Both the position numbers and the translations under genes were made by a program. Below, in pieces: positions 30,481 through 43,744 of a stretch of 64,000 nt of DNA (within the stretch, counting starts at the first letter, position 1; every line of letters begins with the position of its first letter). Under the pieces are notes generated by a model, which had not been told where the DNA came from, did not search any database, and was given only the letters and a program-made list of their open reading frames with translations. The stretch lies in the NCBI GenBank assembly GCA_963664815.2, contig CAXXHB010000003.1, positions 1,664,001 through 1,728,000 on the forward strand, read 5' to 3'. This DNA comes from Spirochaetota bacterium (lineage in GTDB: Bacteria; Spirochaetota; UBA4802; UBA5550).

Positions 30481-30560
30481 AAAAGATTCAGGAGTTATAC
30501 TGCTGATTAAGATTCAGTTTCATTTTAATTTAATCCGTCTGATGAGGCAGGCCTTGGAGT

Positions 30561-30707
30561 TTATTCTCCCTGCAGTTGCTTCTTGATCTCTTTCAGTTTT
30601 TCAATGTCATCAGGCGAAAGAGTCTTGTCTCCAGTGATAGCTTTTGATATTAGTCCAATCAGCAAACCCTTGCCGTAGTTGTCGAGATTCAAGCTGCTTT
30701 TTTTCAT
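30561..30707 (-). CDS. Small hypothetical protein (48 aa, not in the ORF track)
   Basis: ATG 30707 to TAA 30561 gives MKKSSLNLDNYGKGLLIGLISKAITGDKTLSPDDIEKLKEIKKQLQGE. The sequence is more GC-rich than its AT-rich flanks; GGAAAG lies upstream. Confidence 0.5.
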   Translation of the reverse strand: MKKSSLNLDNYGKGLLIGLISKAITGDKTLSPDDIEKLKEIKKQLQGE

Positions 30708-31332
30708 TAAATACTTTCCATGTTTAATAATATATAAGGTTAATGTTTTATGTACAATTATTCGGGATTATTTATTAACTTTTAAATTATGTTTATATAA
30801 TCCTTTTTTTCATGGTTGAATGATAATATAATTTTTCATTAATAAAATTTAAGCAATTAATGCCGAGATATTATATTTAACCTGAGTTTTGATAAAAATA
30901 AAAAATACATTAAATTGTCAACTTCAAATTATCAGTCTGTTTTGAATATTGTAAGATAATAGCTCTGAGTTCTTTTACTTGACATTTGTATTGAAATAGA
31001 GTTAATTAATAAAAGGTCAGGTTATTGATAGAAAATTTCTTATGTTATATTAAAAAGTTCGTTTAAAAAGATGTGTCGGCTTCAAAGTTTACTGTAATAC
31101 TGTTTACAGCGGGTTACTAACAGATTAGAACTTTGTCATTGCGAATATAGAGAAGGATTTTATTTTAGAAATATGTCTTTCATTGTATTAAGCAGGTGTT
31201 CAACAAAAAGACTTTCATGGTATTTAATGTCTTTCAGTGACATTGTTTGTAGTTATTAAATCTCTTACTGATATAATCTGATTAATTCTTTAAAATTACA
31301 CTTTGCGATGAAATAAAAACAGGAGATCAGAA

Positions 31333-32253
31333 ATGACGGAAATACTATCCCAGAATGAAATTGATGGTTTGCTCCTGGCGATATCTTCCGGAGATGTTGA
31401 GTCTGACGGTTGTTCCGGTGTCAGAGAGAAGAAAAAGTTAAAAATATATGATTTCCGCAGACCGGATAAGTTCACCAAAGAACAGTTCCGGATGCTGCAG
31501 ATGATGCATGAAACATTTGCCCGATTGACAGCCTCAATGCTTGCAAATCGTCTTCGTATAATGACGACAGTTACAGTTGTATCGGTTGACCAGCTTACAT
31601 ATGAGGAGTTTACCCGCTCAATACCTGATCCGGCAGTTCTTGCAGTGTTGAGTATGGAACCATTGCCAAATCATGCTGTGATTGAAATAGATCCCGGTGT
31701 AGCTTTTGCAATTATTGAGTGTCTTCATGGCGGTGGTAATACAGAATATGCGTCAATATCACGTGAACTTACAGATATTGAACTCCTTCAGATGGAACGG
31801 ATTATTACTGCCATGATATCAAACCTGAGTTATACATGGGCCAGTGTTCTTGATTTGAAAACCGGATTATCCAGTCTGGAAACTAAACCTCATTTTGCAC
31901 AGATAGTTCCACCCGAAGATTTAACAGCACTTATTACTCTTGAGATCAATATCGGGTCAATCGCAGGTTTGATGAACATATGTTTACCATACATAACAAT
32001 TGAGCCGGTAATAGACCTCTTATCACAACAAGGGATTCAGGATTTTAACAGCAAAGCGACTGAAAAAGCAGGTATAGATACTTGCAATCACTTCTTTAAA
32101 CGCTACATAGACTATTCCGGAGCAATTCCCAACATGAAGCCTGATGATTTGAGAAAGCTGAAGACTGGAATGAAAATTGAGCTTAACACAATGGCCTCGG
32201 CAAAAAATGTTTACGAATTTGCCGGAATAAAAAAGGTGGCACACAATGTCTGA
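31333..32253 (+). CDS. fliM: Flagellar motor switch protein FliM paralogue with a degenerate C-terminal SpoA domain
   Basis: N-terminal LSQNEIDGLL CheY-binding motif, YDFRRPDKF, MHETFARL, VDQLTYEEF, ELTDIE and GLMNICLPY; AGGAG RBS. Confidence 0.85.
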   Translation: MTEILSQNEIDGLLLAISSGDVESDGCSGVREKKKLKIYDFRRPDKFTKEQFRMLQMMHETFARLTASMLANRLRIMTTVTVVSVDQLTYEEFTRSIPDPAVLAVLSMEPLPNHAVIEIDPGVAFAIIECLHGGGNTEYASISRELTDIELLQMERIITAMISNLSYTWASVLDLKTGLSSLETKPHFAQIVPPEDLTALITLEINIGSIAGLMNICLPYITIEPVIDLLSQQGIQDFNSKATEKAGIDTCNHFFKRYIDYSGAIPNMKPDDLRKLKTGMKIELNTMASAKNVYEFAGIKKVAHNV

Positions 32254-34312
32254 TGGACCGTTGAGCCAGGAAGAGATTGATGCCCTGCTTCAGGGAGCCG
32301 GCTCTGTTCTCAAATCTGAGAAAAAAACGGAAGTGAGCGCTGTATCAGAGAATGAACCTGAAGAAAAAGGGGATTTTGATGAATTTCCGTTAACTGATAA
32401 TGATACGTTTGAAGAACCGTCGGGCATGAAAAACTGTTCAAAAACTGAGGCACCGCAGGAAGCTGCATCGAGGTTGATTCATATCAGAAGTGAACAACTT
32501 TACACCGGGAAACTTACTGTAAGAGAATCATTCAGCAATAAACTGATATCTTATCTGAACGGGAATGGTAAAAAGGCTTTGAAGAGTAAATACCTGTCAA
32601 CATTTTACAATGATATTCTTGATCCTGATGAAAAGAAATTTATATCCGGAGATGATTATGGTGATGAGTATGACGGCAGTGTTATGAAAGGGATATTGAA
32701 GAGAATCAGGAACTCAATAACTGGGGTTAATAAATTGGTTCCAGATGTATCCTGCGGATATGAGTTGAATCTTGAAAAATTCAGATTCCCTGTAACTGTA
32801 AGGGTTGAAGCAGGTACCGTTGTGTATAATGAAATAATCAGGGGAGAAGACCAGGTTCCTGTTTCAGATATATCGGGAAGAAAGGCGTTACTTGTTATTG
32901 GAGATATGGAGATCGGAAGCGGGAAGATATCCGCAAAAGATGGCAAAGTGGCATTTATTGAGCTTACTGATACTGTCATGAACAGCAGATCAGGAGCTTT
33001 GCCGTTGACAGATTTGCTTCACGAATACCGCTTTAATATATCGGTTGAGGTGGGGAGAAAGAGTATCCACCCGCTTGAAGCGGAGGAGATTTATAATGGA
33101 ACAGCACTTGTTTTTGATAAATACGCGGGAGAACATCTTGATGTAATTCTTGAAGATTATGATCTGGTTATTGCAAAGGGGGAGGCATGCATTCTTGGTG
33201 AAGTGACGGCTGTACGAATTACAGAAATGGTAAATATTAACCTGCCCGGAGTTCTTAATGGGGAATATGAGAAGAAGAGAGATATCGGGCCGGAGGCTAT
33301 TGTTCCCGTACGATTCGTTTACGGAAGAAGAAAAATGACAATTAAGGAAGTTATTGGTCTTGGAGAGGGGAGTGTTTTGGAACTGGACAGAATATTCCTG
33401 GTTCCTGCCGAGCTTATGTTCGGGGATGAACCGGCAACACGGGCAGAGCTAATTGTTGTTGATGGAAAGCTTGGTGCAAGGGTTCCGGTAGCAAGATTGA
33501 AAAATCTGTATGGTAATAAGCCTGTGAAATCCGTACTGGAATCCTCCTGTGAAAGAGAAGATGTGTCGGTTGGTGAAACTACCGGGCAGGATTATACTTC
33601 TGGAATGGATGGAGCAGATAAACCCTTCAGCTTTTTCAACGAAAACAATATTGAGCATACATTATCAGTTCTTGAAAACGAACATCCTCAGACAATAGCG
33701 CTTGTTCTGTCATATCTTGAAGCTAAACATTGTGCTATGATTCTCTCGTATCTTCCACCTGAAGTCCGTATTGCTGTTACCCGGAGAATTGCATGTATGA
33801 GGGGAGTTTCTGTAACAGTGATCGAGGATTTGGAAAAAGTGCTTCGAAAAAAGCTTTCAAGGATATCATCAGATAGATATCTTTATTCCGGGGGACTTGA
33901 CCATACCATTGAAATAATTAAAAATACCGATCATGGTATGGAAAAGTCTCTTATTGAGGGTCTTGAAGAGACAGATCCACAAACAGCAGCGGAGATAAAA
34001 AATGGAATGTTTTTATTTGAAGATATTGTATTTCTTGAAGACAGATCCGTACAGAAGGTGCTTAGAGAAGTAGATACTCAGGATCTTGTAAAAGCGCTCA
34101 GGGGAGCCAGTAAGGATGTGCATGAGAAAATATTCAGAAATATGTCAAAACGTGCAGTCAGTCTTATAAAAGAGGATATGGATTTCATGGGATCGATTCT
34201 TCTGATAGATGTTCAGAATGCTCAGGAAAAAATAATAAAAATCATTGGAAAACTGAAGGATTCCGGAGAAATATTAGTTCTTCGTCCGGGGGAAGATTAT
34301 CTGGCAAAGTAA
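32246..34312 (+). CDS. FliY/FliN-FliG fusion protein (CheY-binding N-peptide, 2-3 SpoA-like domains, FliG middle and C-terminal domains)
   Basis: MSDGPLSQEEIDALL N-terminus. SpoA-like segments ISVEVGRK..IAKGE..AVRITE and VRFVYGRRKMTIKEVIGLGEGSVLELD. From aa ~459: PFSF, EHPQ, GG, MFLFEDI and NMSKRA..EDM. Confidence 0.8.
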   Translation: MSDGPLSQEEIDALLQGAGSVLKSEKKTEVSAVSENEPEEKGDFDEFPLTDNDTFEEPSGMKNCSKTEAPQEAASRLIHIRSEQLYTGKLTVRESFSNKLISYLNGNGKKALKSKYLSTFYNDILDPDEKKFISGDDYGDEYDGSVMKGILKRIRNSITGVNKLVPDVSCGYELNLEKFRFPVTVRVEAGTVVYNEIIRGEDQVPVSDISGRKALLVIGDMEIGSGKISAKDGKVAFIELTDTVMNSRSGALPLTDLLHEYRFNISVEVGRKSIHPLEAEEIYNGTALVFDKYAGEHLDVILEDYDLVIAKGEACILGEVTAVRITEMVNINLPGVLNGEYEKKRDIGPEAIVPVRFVYGRRKMTIKEVIGLGEGSVLELDRIFLVPAELMFGDEPATRAELIVVDGKLGARVPVARLKNLYGNKPVKSVLESSCEREDVSVGETTGQDYTSGMDGADKPFSFFNENNIEHTLSVLENEHPQTIALVLSYLEAKHCAMILSYLPPEVRIAVTRRIACMRGVSVTVIEDLEKVLRKKLSRISSDRYLYSGGLDHTIEIIKNTDHGMEKSLIEGLEETDPQTAAEIKNGMFLFEDIVFLEDRSVQKVLREVDTQDLVKALRGASKDVHEKIFRNMSKRAVSLIKEDMDFMGSILLIDVQNAQEKIIKIIGKLKDSGEILVLRPGEDYLAK

Positions 34313-34331
34313 TTATTAAGGAAATTTACAT

Positions 34332-34976
34332 ATGGAACTGATAGACTTTACAGGGATATACCAGACAGGCGGAAAGTTTTTAAAATTTACCGGTTATAGT
34401 GAGCTGGCTGACAAATTGACCGGTATCAGCGAGAAAACCAGGAAAGAGGGATTGCTGGCTATTGAAGATGACCTGGAATATATGGATAATATAATGATGA
34501 AAAAGCAGTTTCAGCTGGTTGTAGATGGAACCGATCCGGAGATTGTTAAAAATATAGGTTCACTGCGGCTCTGTAATCTGCTTTATACCTTGAAGGAGAT
34601 TCTTGCATGTGCAGAATTCACGCTTTTCATGGATGCTGAAATGGAATTTGAATTATATCTGGCAAGTCGTGATGCAGCTTCCAGTGCGGTTCTTATAAAA
34701 GAGATGAGAGAGCAGATACTTTTTCTCAGAAAAGGGAATGAACAGGGAATTGAACTTCCTGAAAGGTTCAGAGCTGTTATTGATACGGTAAACTCCGGTA
34801 TTGACTGTGAAATAAAAAAGAATATTATAGAAAACCACATATGTTCAATACTTAATATAAACAGAATATATAATGAGGTCATAATAGCTGGTGTATTGGG
34901 AGTTCAGGCAGGTGACAACCCCTCGGTTCTCAGGGAGAAGCTTGATGCGATAACAGGTAATATCATTCAGGCATAA
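34332..34976 (+). CDS. Soluble MotA-like protein (cytoplasmic segments only, no TM helices)
   Basis: EKTRKEGLLAIE..QLVVDGTDPE matches the MotA cytoplasmic loop. EVIIAGVLGVQAGDNP..LREKL matches the MotA C-terminal tail. No long uncharged hydrophobic segment is present. Confidence 0.72.
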   Translation: MELIDFTGIYQTGGKFLKFTGYSELADKLTGISEKTRKEGLLAIEDDLEYMDNIMMKKQFQLVVDGTDPEIVKNIGSLRLCNLLYTLKEILACAEFTLFMDAEMEFELYLASRDAASSAVLIKEMREQILFLRKGNEQGIELPERFRAVIDTVNSGIDCEIKKNIIENHICSILNINRIYNEVIIAGVLGVQAGDNPSVLREKLDAITGNIIQA

Positions 34977-36462: not shown

Positions 36463-36680
36463 TCTTTAAAAACATTTAGGTGTTATTGCCGGAGATTCAT
36501 ATTTCTATATTTTAATATTAAGTATAAGAAATTATCTCAGAGTAAAATTCCCAATAAAGCAGGGCAGGAGATAGTTGAACGTATAGCAAAAACAGCAAAA
36601 GAACTCGTCATAATTTTTTAATGTGTATAAACATTTCATTGAATACGAAATCGATGAAATGCAGGGGAGATGATAAGGTT

Positions 36681-37286
36681 ATGGCATTTACATACTTTTT
36701 CAGGGATATGCAGACCCTTGAGATGATAAGGGATTACGCAATACCAGTGCTGAGGACCAAGAGATATATAAATGTATGGGATGCAGGATGTGCCATGGGG
36801 CCTGAACCTTATTCACTTGCTATTATACTCAGGGAAAACATGGGGAACATGATTTTCAGAAATGTAAGAATATATGCCACTGATATAGACGGGAGTAATC
36901 TTTTTCAGGAGATTATAGAATCCGGGGAATACCCGAGGGAACAACTGGACAGAATTCCGTCAGATATATTCAACAGGTATTTTTCTAAAGTGGATGATGG
37001 TGAAAAATACAGGATATCGGAAGACATAATCAGATGCCTGCATTTTATAAGGCACGATCTTCTCTCACTTCATCCGGTAAAGAATGATTTCAGTATGGTT
37101 TTATGCAAGAATGTTCTGCTTCACTTTAAACATGAAGAGAGAGTTAAGGTTATAAAGATGTTTCATGAAAATCTTCTAGAAGGGGGATTCTTTGTTACTG
37201 AACAGACCCAGAAGATGCCTGAGGAACTGGATGGTTTTTTTGAACAAGTAGTATCTAATGCACAGGTGTACAGAAAGGTCGGATAA
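36681..37286 (+). CDS. cheR: CheR-type methyltransferase, catalytic domain only
   Basis: Starts MAFTYFFRD. Motifs WDAGCAMGPEPYSLA, ATDID, HDLL and CKNVLLHF. The N-terminal all-alpha domain is absent. Confidence 0.8.
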   Translation: MAFTYFFRDMQTLEMIRDYAIPVLRTKRYINVWDAGCAMGPEPYSLAIILRENMGNMIFRNVRIYATDIDGSNLFQEIIESGEYPREQLDRIPSDIFNRYFSKVDDGEKYRISEDIIRCLHFIRHDLLSLHPVKNDFSMVLCKNVLLHFKHEERVKVIKMFHENLLEGGFFVTEQTQKMPEELDGFFEQVVSNAQVYRKVG

Positions 37287-37894
37287 TGAGAGCGGATAAT
37301 GTGAAAATATATAATCTCACTGAAAACAGTAAAGTTTATACATCAAATGTTTATCTTATAACAGGAACTTGGAACAGGATTGATGATGTTAATGCACTTA
37401 TTGATGTCGGACGTGATCTTTCTATACTTGAAATGATTCTTGAAATCCCCACCGGCGTTGGTAAAAAACAGGTTGAGAAAGTAGTAATTACTCACAACCA
37501 TTACGATCACACATCAATGCTTCCAAATGTGAAAAAAGTATTTAATTCCAGGGTATGTGCTTTTTCAAATTCAATAGCTGGAGTAGATCGCATACTGAGA
37601 GACGGAGACATGATAAAACTTGGAGACAGGTTATTTGAGGTTATACACACACCTGGTCACAGTAGTGATTCAATATGTCTCTATAACATGGATGATGGTG
37701 CTCTTTTTTCTGGAGATACATCTCTTGTTATACGTAACACTGAATCATACTATGATGATGAATTTATCAGAGCTGTGGAAAAACTGTGCAGACGTGATGT
37801 GCAAATAATATATCCGGGGCATGGAGAAACTATTCGTGAAAAGTGTAATGATAAGATAAGGGAATCATTGAAAAACCTGAGGAAAAATAATTAA
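37286..37894 (+). CDS. MBL-fold metallo-hydrolase
   Basis: THNHYDH, TPGHS, FSGD and YPGHG motifs. Translationally coupled to cheR (TAATG). Confidence 0.88.
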   Translation: MRADNVKIYNLTENSKVYTSNVYLITGTWNRIDDVNALIDVGRDLSILEMILEIPTGVGKKQVEKVVITHNHYDHTSMLPNVKKVFNSRVCAFSNSIAGVDRILRDGDMIKLGDRLFEVIHTPGHSSDSICLYNMDDGALFSGDTSLVIRNTESYYDDEFIRAVEKLCRRDVQIIYPGHGETIREKCNDKIRESLKNLRKNN

Positions 37895-37999: not shown

Positions 38000-40291
38000 A
38001 TGTTCAGGAATATGAAACTTGGTATTAAAATTCTTACAGGATTTACAGTTCTCACTTTTCTTATAATAGGTGTTGGGGTAATTGGAATTGTTAACATCAG
38101 GCAAATTAATAGCGCAGATACAAAACTATATGAAAAAATGACTCTGCCGCTGGGTGATCTTGGACAGGCGGGAATGGACTTCCACCGTATAAGGGTTAAC
38201 CTCAGGGACGCTATATCGTCAACCAGTATATCTGACAGAGATAATTTTATAAAGAGAGTGGAAGAGCTTGGAAAAGATATGATTAATAATCTTGATGATT
38301 ATGAGAAAACAATACTTACAGATGAAGGAAGGCGGCAGTTTACTGAAATGAAAAAATCCATTGATGATTACACTATTCAGCAGAATGAAATGATACGGTT
38401 AATAAAGGATAATAAAAATGCAGAAGCCTCAGTTATTCTTTATGGTGAGGGCGGGAAATGTGCAAGAAAAATAATTGATCTTGTTGACAAGATGTATGAA
38501 CTGAAGACTTCCATGGCCAAAAAAACATCAGACGAAAATACAGTGCTGGCAAATTCATCTGTGACATTAATGATGATTTTAATTATATTTGCCGCTGTTT
38601 TTTCAGCAATACTAACTTTTGTACTTACCGGAAACATAAAAAAAATTATTAAAAATCTTCTGGATGAAGCCGGGCGTCTTGTTGATGCTGCGGTAAACGG
38701 TAAACTCGATATAAGGGCTGATCCGCAGAAGATAAATTTTGAATTCAGAGATATAGTGGTTGGAGTAAACAATACTCTTGATGCGGTAATAGGACCATTG
38801 AATGTAGCAGCCGAATATGTGGAAAGAATTTCTAGAGGAGATATTCCGCCTAAGATTTCTGATACTTATCATGGAGACTTTAATGAGATAAAGAATAACC
38901 TCAATATGTGTATCGATGCAGTAAATCTGCTTGTGAATGATGCCGGCATGCTCTCAAAAGCTGCAGTTCAAGGGAAACTGGATACCCGTGCAGATGCGAG
39001 CAGACACCAGGGGGACTTCGCAGCGATAGTGAAGGGTGTAAATGATACACTTGATGCGGTAATAGGCCCGCTGAATGTTGCAGCAGAGTATGTTGAGAGG
39101 ATCTCTAAAGGTGATATCCCGCCGAAAATTACTGACAGCTACAATGGAGATTTTAATGAAATTAAGAATAATATAAATATTCTTACCGATGCCATGAACA
39201 AAATTACTGATGTTTCCCAGGAGATTGCAGGAGGAAACCTTATGATTCAGGTGGAGGAAAGGTCGGCACAGGATAAACTGATGATTGCTCTTAAAAAAAT
39301 GGTTAGTGATCTGACGTCAATAGCAGTCGATGTTCAGACAGCGGCCAACCAGGTTGCAACAGGGAGTGGTGAAATGAGCTCATCTGCAGAGGAGATGGCG
39401 CAGAGTGCCAATGAACAGTCCGCCAGTGTTGAGCAGGTGTCCAGCTCAATGGAGGAAATGAACAGTTCGGTTATTCAGAATGCCGATAACGCAAAACAGA
39501 CAGCTGCGATTTCAGACAAGGCGGCGAAAGATGCAAGGGATGGAGGAACCGCCGTTGCTGAAACTGTAAAGGCAATGAAGAGTATAGCGGAAAAGATTTC
39601 CGTAATTGAAGATATAGCAGCACAGACCAATATGCTTGCGCTTAATGCTGCAATTGAGGCAGCCAGGGCGGGCGAACATGGGAAGGGTTTTGCCGTGGTT
39701 GCGGGAGAAGTAAGGACATTGGCAGAGAGGAGCGGCAACGCGGCCAAAGAGATAAATAATCTTTCAATGCAGAGTGTTGAGGTTGCAGAACGTGCGGGAA
39801 AACTCATCGAGGATATAGTACCTCAGATACAAAAGACAGCAGAACTGGTGCAGGAGATAAATGTGTCAAGCTCGGAACAGGCTAACGGAATTGCTCAGGT
39901 AACTCAGGCTGTTGAACAGCTTGATAAAGGGATACAGCAGAGTGCAACTGCAACTGAAGAGATGGCATCAACTACAGAGGAGCTTCTTGGACAGGCGGAA
40001 CAGTTGCAGCGGGCAGCATCATTCTTTAAAGTAAAAGATAATCAGTTTGATGCTGGAGGTGGTAATGGTAACGGAAGACATCCCGGCAGGGAGCATTACA
40101 TTCCCGATAAACGTCAAGGGAAAGCAGGTATTTCAAAGATTTTAAACAGGCAGAATAAACAGATCGAACCTGTCAACAAAGGTTCTGAATTGGAGGCAGT
40201 TAAAAAAAGCTATGGCAACAATGATGTAATAACTGCAGCAGGTGGTGTTGATATAAATCTTGCAAGTGACAGTGAATTTGAAAGATATTAA
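38000..40291 (+). CDS. Methyl-accepting chemotaxis protein (four-helix-bundle sensor, poly-HAMP)
   Basis: Two TM helices, duplicated HAMP block, hairpin tip [27 protein letters not shown] and C-terminal EFERY. Confidence 0.95.
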
Positions 40292-43450: not shown

Positions 43451-43744
43451 ATGAAACTGAGTATAGAAAAGAAGAAAAATGAAAACAATATAGTTTCAAT
43501 GATTATGAAAGGGGAACTGACAGTCTATACAGTTGTGAAGCTTAAGGATATTATCATTAAGGAACTTAACTCTTTTTCAGGGATGGTGTTGAATCTTGCC
43601 GGTATTGATGAGGCTGATTCTGCAGGATTCCAGTTTCTCATTTTTATAAAGCGTGAGGCAGAAAAATCAGGCAAGAGTCTGGTTATAGACAATGCAAGCG
43701 GAAGGATAAAATCAATTTTCTCTCTTTATAATGAGAATCTTTAA
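43451..43744 (+). CDS. STAS domain protein (chemotaxis-associated)
   Basis: GELTVYT..LNLAGIDEADSAGFQ; lies between cheY and cheA. Confidence 0.88.
   Translation: MKLSIEKKKNENNIVSMIMKGELTVYTVVKLKDIIIKELNSFSGMVLNLAGIDEADSAGFQFLIFIKREAEKSGKSLVIDNASGRIKSIFSLYNENL

Follow-up and report, generated by a model that had tools for sequence, protein, structure and literature searches.

The window analyzed here is a 64,000-nucleotide (nt) stretch of a Spirochaetota bacterium, taken from contig CAXXHB010000003.1 (positions 1,664,001 to 1,728,000, forward strand) of assembly GCA_963664815.2. It encodes a 214-amino-acid (aa) homologue of MotA that has no membrane part (34332..34976, +). MotA itself is known to sit in the membrane and to push on FliG with its cytoplasmic head. 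The 214-aa gene is intact, and its product is derived from MotA, is free of membrane segments, and retains the charges equivalent to R90 and E98 of Escherichia coli MotA. It is the last of three plus-strand genes and follows a fliM paralogue (encoding FliM') and a gene in which FliN is fused to the middle and C-terminal domains of FliG (the FliN-FliG(MC) fusion). We give a probability of about one half to the reading that this triad forms a soluble, switch-like complex that probably responds to phosphorylated CheY (CheY-P). Such a complex would combine a copy of a C-ring protomer with a stator face, and would serve as a signalling or regulatory switch without rotation.

The gene was recognized from the open reading frame (ORF) call, NCBIfam, PDB and profile-profile matches, hydropathy, a structural model, and a structure search. 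It starts with ATG, and the gap from the stop of the fusion gene is 19 nt. An AAGGA motif resembling a ribosome-binding site was read from the sequence 9 nt before the ATG (34318..34322, +). A sequence-only reading of this DNA had described an intact ORF with its own AAGGA site, and this was confirmed. The cytoplasmic loop, which is the torque-generating interface of MotA, occupies aa 22-80 (34395..34571, +) by alignment, with a predicted local distance difference test (pLDDT) score of 95-98 in the model. It contains RKEGLLAIE (aa 37-45) and QLVVDGTDPE (aa 61-70). The earlier reading had likened the spacing of R and E in the first motif to that of R90 and E98. Pairwise alignment with E. coli K-12 MotA (NC_000913.3) bears this out, with R37 (codon 34440-34442) equivalent to R90 and E45 (codon 34464-34466) to E98; the torque interface thus has both its Arg and its Glu. 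The C-terminal cytoplasmic tail motif occupies aa 176-206 (34857..34949, +) by alignments and PDB matches. It contains IIAGVLGVQAGDNP (aa 184-197), which aligns with the MotA tail, and LREKL (aa 200-204). The MotA tail pattern I-x-G-x-L-x-I-Q-x-G-x-N-P is present, and the tail residues G187, L189, Q192, G194, N196, and P197 are invariant in a 48-row alignment. The motifs cited in the earlier reading are all present at these positions. Passages in bioRxiv 10.1101/2021.01.07.425829 and PMC12505986 report that MotA R90 and E98 pair with D288/D289 and R281 of FliG.

The NCBIfam equivalog models for MotP, MotA, and PomA match aa 22-76 and a second stretch (E 7e-15 to 3e-5). These matches are all far below the cut-offs, and the best reaches 54.7 against 394 bits. 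The Pfam scan of the protein gave zero matches at E<=1, PF01618 included. Nine distinct MotA/PomA sequences from the PDB match at E<=0.01 (best 8ucs_C, 6.5e-10), with alignments that span the loop (aa 27-80) as well as the tail (aa 177-205). A profile-profile comparison of 19 membrane-free relatives with 43 MotAs gave a probability of 99.95 and an E value of 2.4e-38 over 190 collinear columns. Judged from these sequence comparisons, the loop and tail motifs are genuine MotA motifs and not chance matches.

The A subunits of MotA/PomA stators contain four transmembrane (TM) helices, and TM3 and TM4 form the ion path around MotB. The 214-aa protein had been described as free of TM helices and without TM1-2, and the hydropathy profile agrees. 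Its Kyte-Doolittle 19-residue maximum is 1.26 (threshold 1.6), the peak lies inside the conserved cytoplasmic tail, and aa 80-175 contain no TM segment. All four control MotAs exceed 1.6 in the four expected segments. The stretch from aa 77 to 185 has 17 D/E and 12 K/R among its 109 residues and is predicted to be helical. When the whole window was searched with four MotAs by tblastn, the sole match was the 214-aa ORF, in one frame and covering MotA residues ~67-243. The search found no coding piece or remnant of TM1-2 in the window. A frameshifted TM-coding piece nearby, which would have spoken for a pseudogene, was likewise looked for and was not found. The gene is not a frameshifted pseudogene. 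Because the protein has no TM helices, it lacks an ion channel as well as a site for MotB, and it is unable to conduct ions or bind MotB. There is no adjacent motB, and no MotB/OmpA domain was found among the 24 neighbouring ORFs scanned.

Two AlphaFold2 models were compared. The model from a MotA-dominated alignment (48 rows) had a mean pLDDT of 73, with values of 50-60 over aa 95-160, and was confident only on the MotA-like parts. The model from the membrane-free relatives only (28 rows) had a mean pLDDT of 95.0 and a predicted template modelling score (pTM) of 0.90, and was confident over the whole chain. It contains two short strands (aa 9-11 and 15-17), helices at aa 22-39, 41-48, and 54-64, and a long helix at aa 69-99. 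These are followed by three short helices (aa 103-111, 116-133, and 144-154), a long C-terminal helix (aa 159-193), and a last helix (aa 197-208). Foldseek with this model returned exclusively MotA/PomA chains at places 1-16 (TMq 0.37-0.53), which is the structural match to MotA that was sought. In the model, about two thirds of the protein superposes on the cytoplasmic part of MotA. The rest is a family-specific, charged helical segment at the position of the membrane hairpin (aa 77-175; 34560..34856, +; alignments, hydropathy, and model), that is, of TM3, the periplasmic turn, and TM4. The earlier reading had placed about 100 charged, helical-looking residues there. The segment is charged, helical, and collinear with the hairpin, but a "solubilised TM3-4" is unsupported at the residue level. 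We did not adopt this reading of the segment, which is collinear and of similar length but has low hhalign confidence. In the family-only model it has three short helices between two long ones and no long hairpin, and descent from a TM3-4 hairpin is no more than a possibility. P173 and P222 of E. coli MotA, which we take to be important for MotA function, align to S117 and I165, in a region where the alignment is unreliable.

FliM' (31333..32253, +) has 306 aa and matches PF02154 over aa 39-230 (E 3.1e-61). Its N terminus reads MTEILSQNEIDGLL and contains LSQNEIDGLL, a motif of the CheY-P-binding type. Compared by eye, this N terminus is nearly the same as that of the canonical 350-aa FliM of the same genome. 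The C-terminal FliN-like part of FliM' is shortened, and no FliMN_C match was found by Pfam at E<=1. The stop of its gene overlaps the start of the fusion gene by 8 nt.

The FliN-FliG(MC) fusion (32246..34312, +) has 688 aa and matches the Pfam families FliMN_C (two stretches, 7e-19), FliG_M (1.7e-23), and FliG_C (7.2e-36). It begins MSDGPLSQEEIDALL and contains an N-terminal LSQEEIDALL motif; a TIGR01397 match on aa 6-28 is weak (E 0.0046). The two FliN-type (SpoA) stretches occupy aa 263-330 and 353-413 (33032..33484, +; Pfam and NCBIfam). The FliG middle domain occupies aa 473-542 (33662..33871, +; Pfam and family alignment). The fusion keeps the EHPQ motif (aa 479-482) and an MFLF motif, and a GGXG-type motif is kept alongside EHPQ, as would suit the proposed pairing of FliM' with the FliG_M of the fusion. 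The FliG C-terminal (torque) domain occupies aa 572-676 (33959..34273, +; Pfam and PDB 1lkv). Its torque-helix charges R636, E643, and D644 (34151..34177, +) are equivalent to R281, D288, and D289 of E. coli K-12 FliG in a pairwise alignment, and R619 is equivalent to K264. Residues 459-685 match the Thermotoga maritima FliG_MC structure 1lkv end to end (E 9.3e-61). The TIGR00207 fliG model is matched only over positions 110-334 of 338, and for this reason we consider the FliF-binding domain FliG_N absent. A weak PF14842 match falls on the FliG_M region (aa 481-560).

The host genome also encodes a complete flagellar set. It contains FlhA, seven flagellin-type genes, two full-length FliG proteins (338 and 339 aa), and the canonical FliM. 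Five MotA_ExbB matches were found, and two of them, in frames of 276 and 264 aa, are candidates for full-length MotA genes. The genome contains three FlaA sheath-protein genes, versus none in 14 control genomes. The complete set and the FlaA genes indicate that the host is a spirochaete with periplasmic flagella, and that the triad is an extra set. Two weak matches elsewhere in the genome, each of which may be a broken copy or a chance match, are a FliG_C-like match with an internal TGA (G000:C3:2339607-2339900) and a MotA_ExbB match with an internal TAA (G000:C3:3663825-3664088).

The membrane-free form was not found in the 40 relatives compared, which range from the same genus to the same order; their best matches were ordinary MotA frames of 260-290 aa. 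At the DNA level, five genomes of the same genus showed only paralogue-level similarity to the triad, in canonical fliM, fliG, and motA. A phylum sample of 401 genomes gave 334 matches at E<=1e-20, and the best 150 of the 334 were examined. Among these 150, full-length matches came from the host genome itself, from genome G387 (281 bits), and from a distant member in G383 (96 bits). G387 belongs to another family of the same order. It has the same gene order, and the starts and stops of the three genes overlap; the FliM has 315 aa, the FliN-FliG_MC fusion 585 aa, and the membrane-free MotA 240 aa. The triad proteins are 33-37% identical across the two families. The G387 flanks are unrelated, with resistance-nodulation-division efflux genes on one side and hydrolase and fatty-acid genes on the other. 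A metagenome contig (L054) contains a cut FliM, an 852-aa FliN-FliG_MC fusion, and a cut membrane-free MotA, in that order. A Leptospirales contig (L053) contains a cut ORF that ends in FliG_C, followed by a membrane-free MotA with FapA. A FliG_C-bearing gene is directly upstream in four of the five contexts (the window, G387, L054, and L053), and fliM precedes in all three contexts that reach far enough. The G383 member (L052:1265-1954, -; 229 aa) lies in the vicinity of a WG protein with nine repeats and a protein with two PilZ domains. A phylum search with aa 249-552 of the fusion at E<=1e-30 retrieved only the host genome (1/401) and missed even the known G387 fusion.

Relatives became visible with an exhaustive profile search; a word-index search of 5.8 billion clusters showed only two beside MotAs among the 120 matches listed. 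Of these 120, 117 were ordinary PF01618 MotAs; the others were the query protein of 214 aa, P0002 with 218 aa and 47% identity to it, and the fragment P0003. The exhaustive search covered 1.84 billion representatives and gave 1479 matches at E<=0.001, and the best 150 of the 1479 were examined. Among these, a further 26 proteins span the whole profile in one stretch; their lengths run from 164 to 628 aa, and only one is shorter than 207 aa. From a 28-row sequence alignment we define here a putative membrane-free MotA-domain family, which is not a curated family. Its traits are the loop and tail motifs, no hydrophobic segment, an N-terminal DFTG hairpin, and either a length of ~205-250 aa or a C-terminal add-on. 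The 214-aa protein has these traits. No 19-residue window exceeds 1.6 in 27 of the 28 rows, and the exception is P0155 (1.93). R37 is kept in 25 of the 27 rows covering the position, and E45 is conserved in 24 of these 27, with D in two others and A in one.

Several relatives carry additional domains. P0147, P0148, P0149, P0151, and L053:550-1650 contain a membrane-free head and a C-terminal FapA beta-solenoid (PF03961, E ~1e-15). In P0166 and P0198 the head is fused to WG repeats, and in P0178 it is fused to FliG_C. A scan of 12 long proteins matched in multiple stretches showed that 9 of these carry one or two FliG_C domains. Custom loop and tail hidden Markov models, run on 11 of the 12 (P0177 left out), found two to five "mini" MotA heads in each; the tail motif, where detected, is 10-30 residues after the loop. 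P0164, P0167, and P0172 contain five MotA heads per chain, ~140 residues apart and without the membrane hairpin. A stator unit holds the same number of MotA subunits. P0164 and P0167 each end in two FliG_C domains, and the P0164 cluster includes a protein from a Treponema sp. metagenome-assembled genome (MAG).

All three members with an organism name are from spirochaetes: P0158 (Spirochaetales MAG), P0297 (Treponema sp. MAG, five-head), and L053 (Leptospirales MAG contig). Public records name the relatives "hypothetical protein" or "chemotaxis protein MotA". In the ESM Atlas, the clusters retrieved at 0.90 were all unnamed. No match came from phage records, and plasmid records gave one match (28% identity) on a 2.6-Mb record. 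Family-specific scans of genome and metagenome collections retrieved one locus each. A quick tree on all columns, the trait's own columns included, placed 25 MotA rows on one side (92) and grouped 23 of the 27 membrane-free rows (89). A tree on 86 loop and tail columns required 5 to 6 changes per group, and MotA as one clade was not rejected by the approximately unbiased test (p 0.94); the membrane-free form may have arisen once or several times.

The triad is built from known motor parts in a new arrangement. The 214-aa protein has the torque interface and tail in common with MotA/PomA (PF01618; PDB 8ucs, 6ykm, 6ysf, 8brd, and 9lu9), but it lacks TM1-2 and TM3-4 and has neither the four TM helices, the curated score, nor the adjacent motB of that family. 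In the switch complex, FliG_M binds FliM, and FliN is the partner of FliM_C. CheY-P docks on the N-terminal peptide of FliM/FliY, and FliG_C reorients on switching. The two upstream genes resemble this FliG/FliM/FliN(FliY) complex in supplying FliM middle, FliN-type, FliG_M, and FliG_C domains, with EHPQ, MFxF, the torque-helix charges, and N-terminal peptides of the CheY-P-binding type kept. They differ from it in that FliN and FliG_MC are in one polypeptide, the FliF anchor FliG_N is missing, and the FliM' C terminus is shortened. Measured against FliG alone, the fusion has FliG_M and FliG_C but no FliG_N. The triad is also additional to the complete canonical set elsewhere in the genome.

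The motor brakes and clutches YcgR/MotI (PilZ proteins) and EpsE are likewise soluble and work where MotA meets FliG. A functional analogy with the 214-aa protein is possible, but the folds are unrelated, and no PilZ or glycosyltransferase domain was found in the protein by Pfam at E<=1. Its mechanism would be mimicry of the stator itself. The single-chain MotA-module/FliG_C proteins (for example P0164, P0167, P0171, and P0178) share the membrane-free loop and tail motifs and the association with FliG_C. In most of them, P0178 excepted, loop and tail are only 10-30 residues apart and the modules are repeated two to five times. The 214-aa protein, in contrast, has one module with a helical insert of ~100 residues and is encoded apart from FliG_C. 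In full-text literature searches, neither a membrane-free MotA nor an operon with a FliN-FliG fusion turned up. The text of a 2025 survey of MotAB homologues (PMC12505986) uses neither "soluble" nor "truncated" outside its supplements, which might list such sequences.

In the soluble switch-like complex that we favor, the 214-aa protein would be the rotor-facing head of MotA, with the four-helix torque interface and the C-terminal tail. The compact helical segment would replace the membrane hairpin, and the short conserved DFTG hairpin would replace TM1-2. The protein would be produced together with FliM' and the fusion. The fusion lacks the FliG domain that anchors to the MS ring. Together the three proteins may amount to a C-ring protomer in soluble form, stator face included, in which FliM' would bind the FliG_M of the fusion and the FliN parts would pair with the FliM C terminus. 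The membrane-free MotA would dock through R37 and E45 onto the torque helix of the fusion (R636/E643/D644). CheY-P binding to the LSQxEIDxLL peptides of FliM' and the fusion may then change the hold of the fusion FliG_C on the MotA-like protein; the presence of these peptides on both proteins makes such CheY-P control the likeliest mode. Since there is no ion path, there would be no powered rotation, and the contact is most likely a regulated binding switch. We tentatively extend this to an unpowered rotor-stator contact used as a protein switch, in which CheY-P flips the soluble FliG_C and the MotA head reads its state for a target other than rotation; this is possible but the less probable side of the bet. 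If it were true, the FapA beta-solenoid or WG-repeat domains on the MotA heads of relatives could be outputs, and in the single chains of five MotA heads and FliG_C the same device would be fused completely.

Several observations weigh against the switch-like complex. The distant G383 member stands alone, without a FliG_C neighbour. The chemosensory (che) cluster downstream of the triad is outside the conserved unit, as seen from the G387 flanks. The fusion has L652 at the position of FliG R297, which is R in 15 of the 19 FliG-type rows aligned; its closest relative, P0122, also has L. R37 or E45 is lost in some family members (P0151 and P0166). The FliN domains of the fusion could equally insert into the real C-ring.

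The sequence-only reading had proposed a soluble stator mimic. Its structural part stands: the protein is membrane-free, keeps the charges, and has the MotA cytoplasmic fold. The context shifts the likely target to the FliG_C of the operon. That domain is more probably the partner than the motor FliG, because the fusion is co-operonic and has a canonical torque helix, a FliG_C-bearing gene is upstream in four of five contexts, and MotA-FliG_C fusions occur. A simple clutch on the real motor is less likely. In its full form, the mimic would be dominant negative: the soluble head would bind the motor FliG_C, compete with MotAB, and brake or declutch the motor, with the fusion perhaps an antidote or store. 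In its favor, the protein retains the entire torque interface, with the equivalents of R90 and E98, and the genome encodes complete periplasmic flagella, including two FliG proteins of full length and two MotA proteins. The fusion FliG_C also closely resembles canonical FliG, which makes cross-binding plausible. A dedicated soluble FliG_C as constant partner is needless for a free inhibitor, however, and we regard the dominant-negative mimic as unlikely. The FliN domains and FliM' could instead co-assemble in the C-ring and display an extra FliG_MC with a MotA head, and this would adjust switching or the recruitment of stators. The domains from which the wall and base of the C-ring are built are retained in FliM' and the fusion, and the FliM' N terminus is very near that of canonical FliM. 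But the shortened FliN-like part of FliM' has no FliMN_C match, and the triad was not found in the 40 relatives or the five same-genus genomes, so it is no general motor part. Such an accessory role is rather improbable.

Two further explanations were weighed. The complex might buffer the CheY-P of one chemosensory pathway, with the MotA-like protein as structural ballast. There are two LSQxEIDxLL peptides per protomer, and the che cluster with CheY is 8 kb downstream. A sink of this kind leaves unexplained the strong conservation of the torque interface on both partners, and also the MotA-FliG_C fusions without FliM/FliN parts, and we consider it quite improbable. Finally, the triad could be a decaying, functionless remnant of a duplicated motor gene set. 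Its occurrence is rare and patchy (full-length matches from two genomes and one distant member among the 150 matches listed in the phylum sample). All three ORFs are intact, though, the three-gene order is kept between families despite the low protein identity, the functional residues are kept, and the family-only alignment gives a model with a pLDDT of 95. Decay is therefore very hard to credit.

Directly downstream of the 214-aa gene is a convergent cheD, followed by the large chemosensory cluster. The cluster encodes a LuxR-type response regulator (RR), a short CheR, a metallo-beta-lactamase (MBL)-fold protein, a methyl-accepting chemotaxis protein (MCP), CheR, CheB, CheW, CheY, a STAS-domain protein, CheA, two kinases, and a regulator. 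The short CheR-type methyltransferase (221 aa, without CheR_N) and the 202-aa MBL-fold protein lie at 36621-37894, with the stop of the first gene overlapping the start of the second. This pair and the next MCP are syntenic in same-genus genomes without the triad. The MCP (38000-40291) contains two 67-residue HAMP_2 repeats, and in same-genus genomes its 3' part is present in tandem, as two or three copies. The STAS-domain protein (97 aa, 43451-43744) lies between cheY and cheA. The cluster ends with a hybrid kinase, an RR-PAS-kinase, and a LuxR-type regulator, which suggest a transcriptional output beside motility. Upstream of the triad, an intergenic stretch of ~850 bp (30481-31332) separates fliM' from a divergent DUF4421 outer-membrane gene, and promoter-like sites in it are at chance level. 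The promoter and terminator scan found 26 promoter-like sites versus 22 expected, and 2 terminator-like sites versus 3.8 expected.

The feature is real. The model supports a natural, stably folded, membrane-free MotA head that is tied genetically to a soluble FliG_C, and the confidence of the family-only model suggests that nature has made a MotA head soluble without its membrane part. Such a head would mean that the torque interface has been reused outside the rotating motor. The protein would provide a water-soluble model of that interface for biochemistry and structure work. It could also point to an output of spirochaete chemotaxis signalling, or a regulator of it, that is new.
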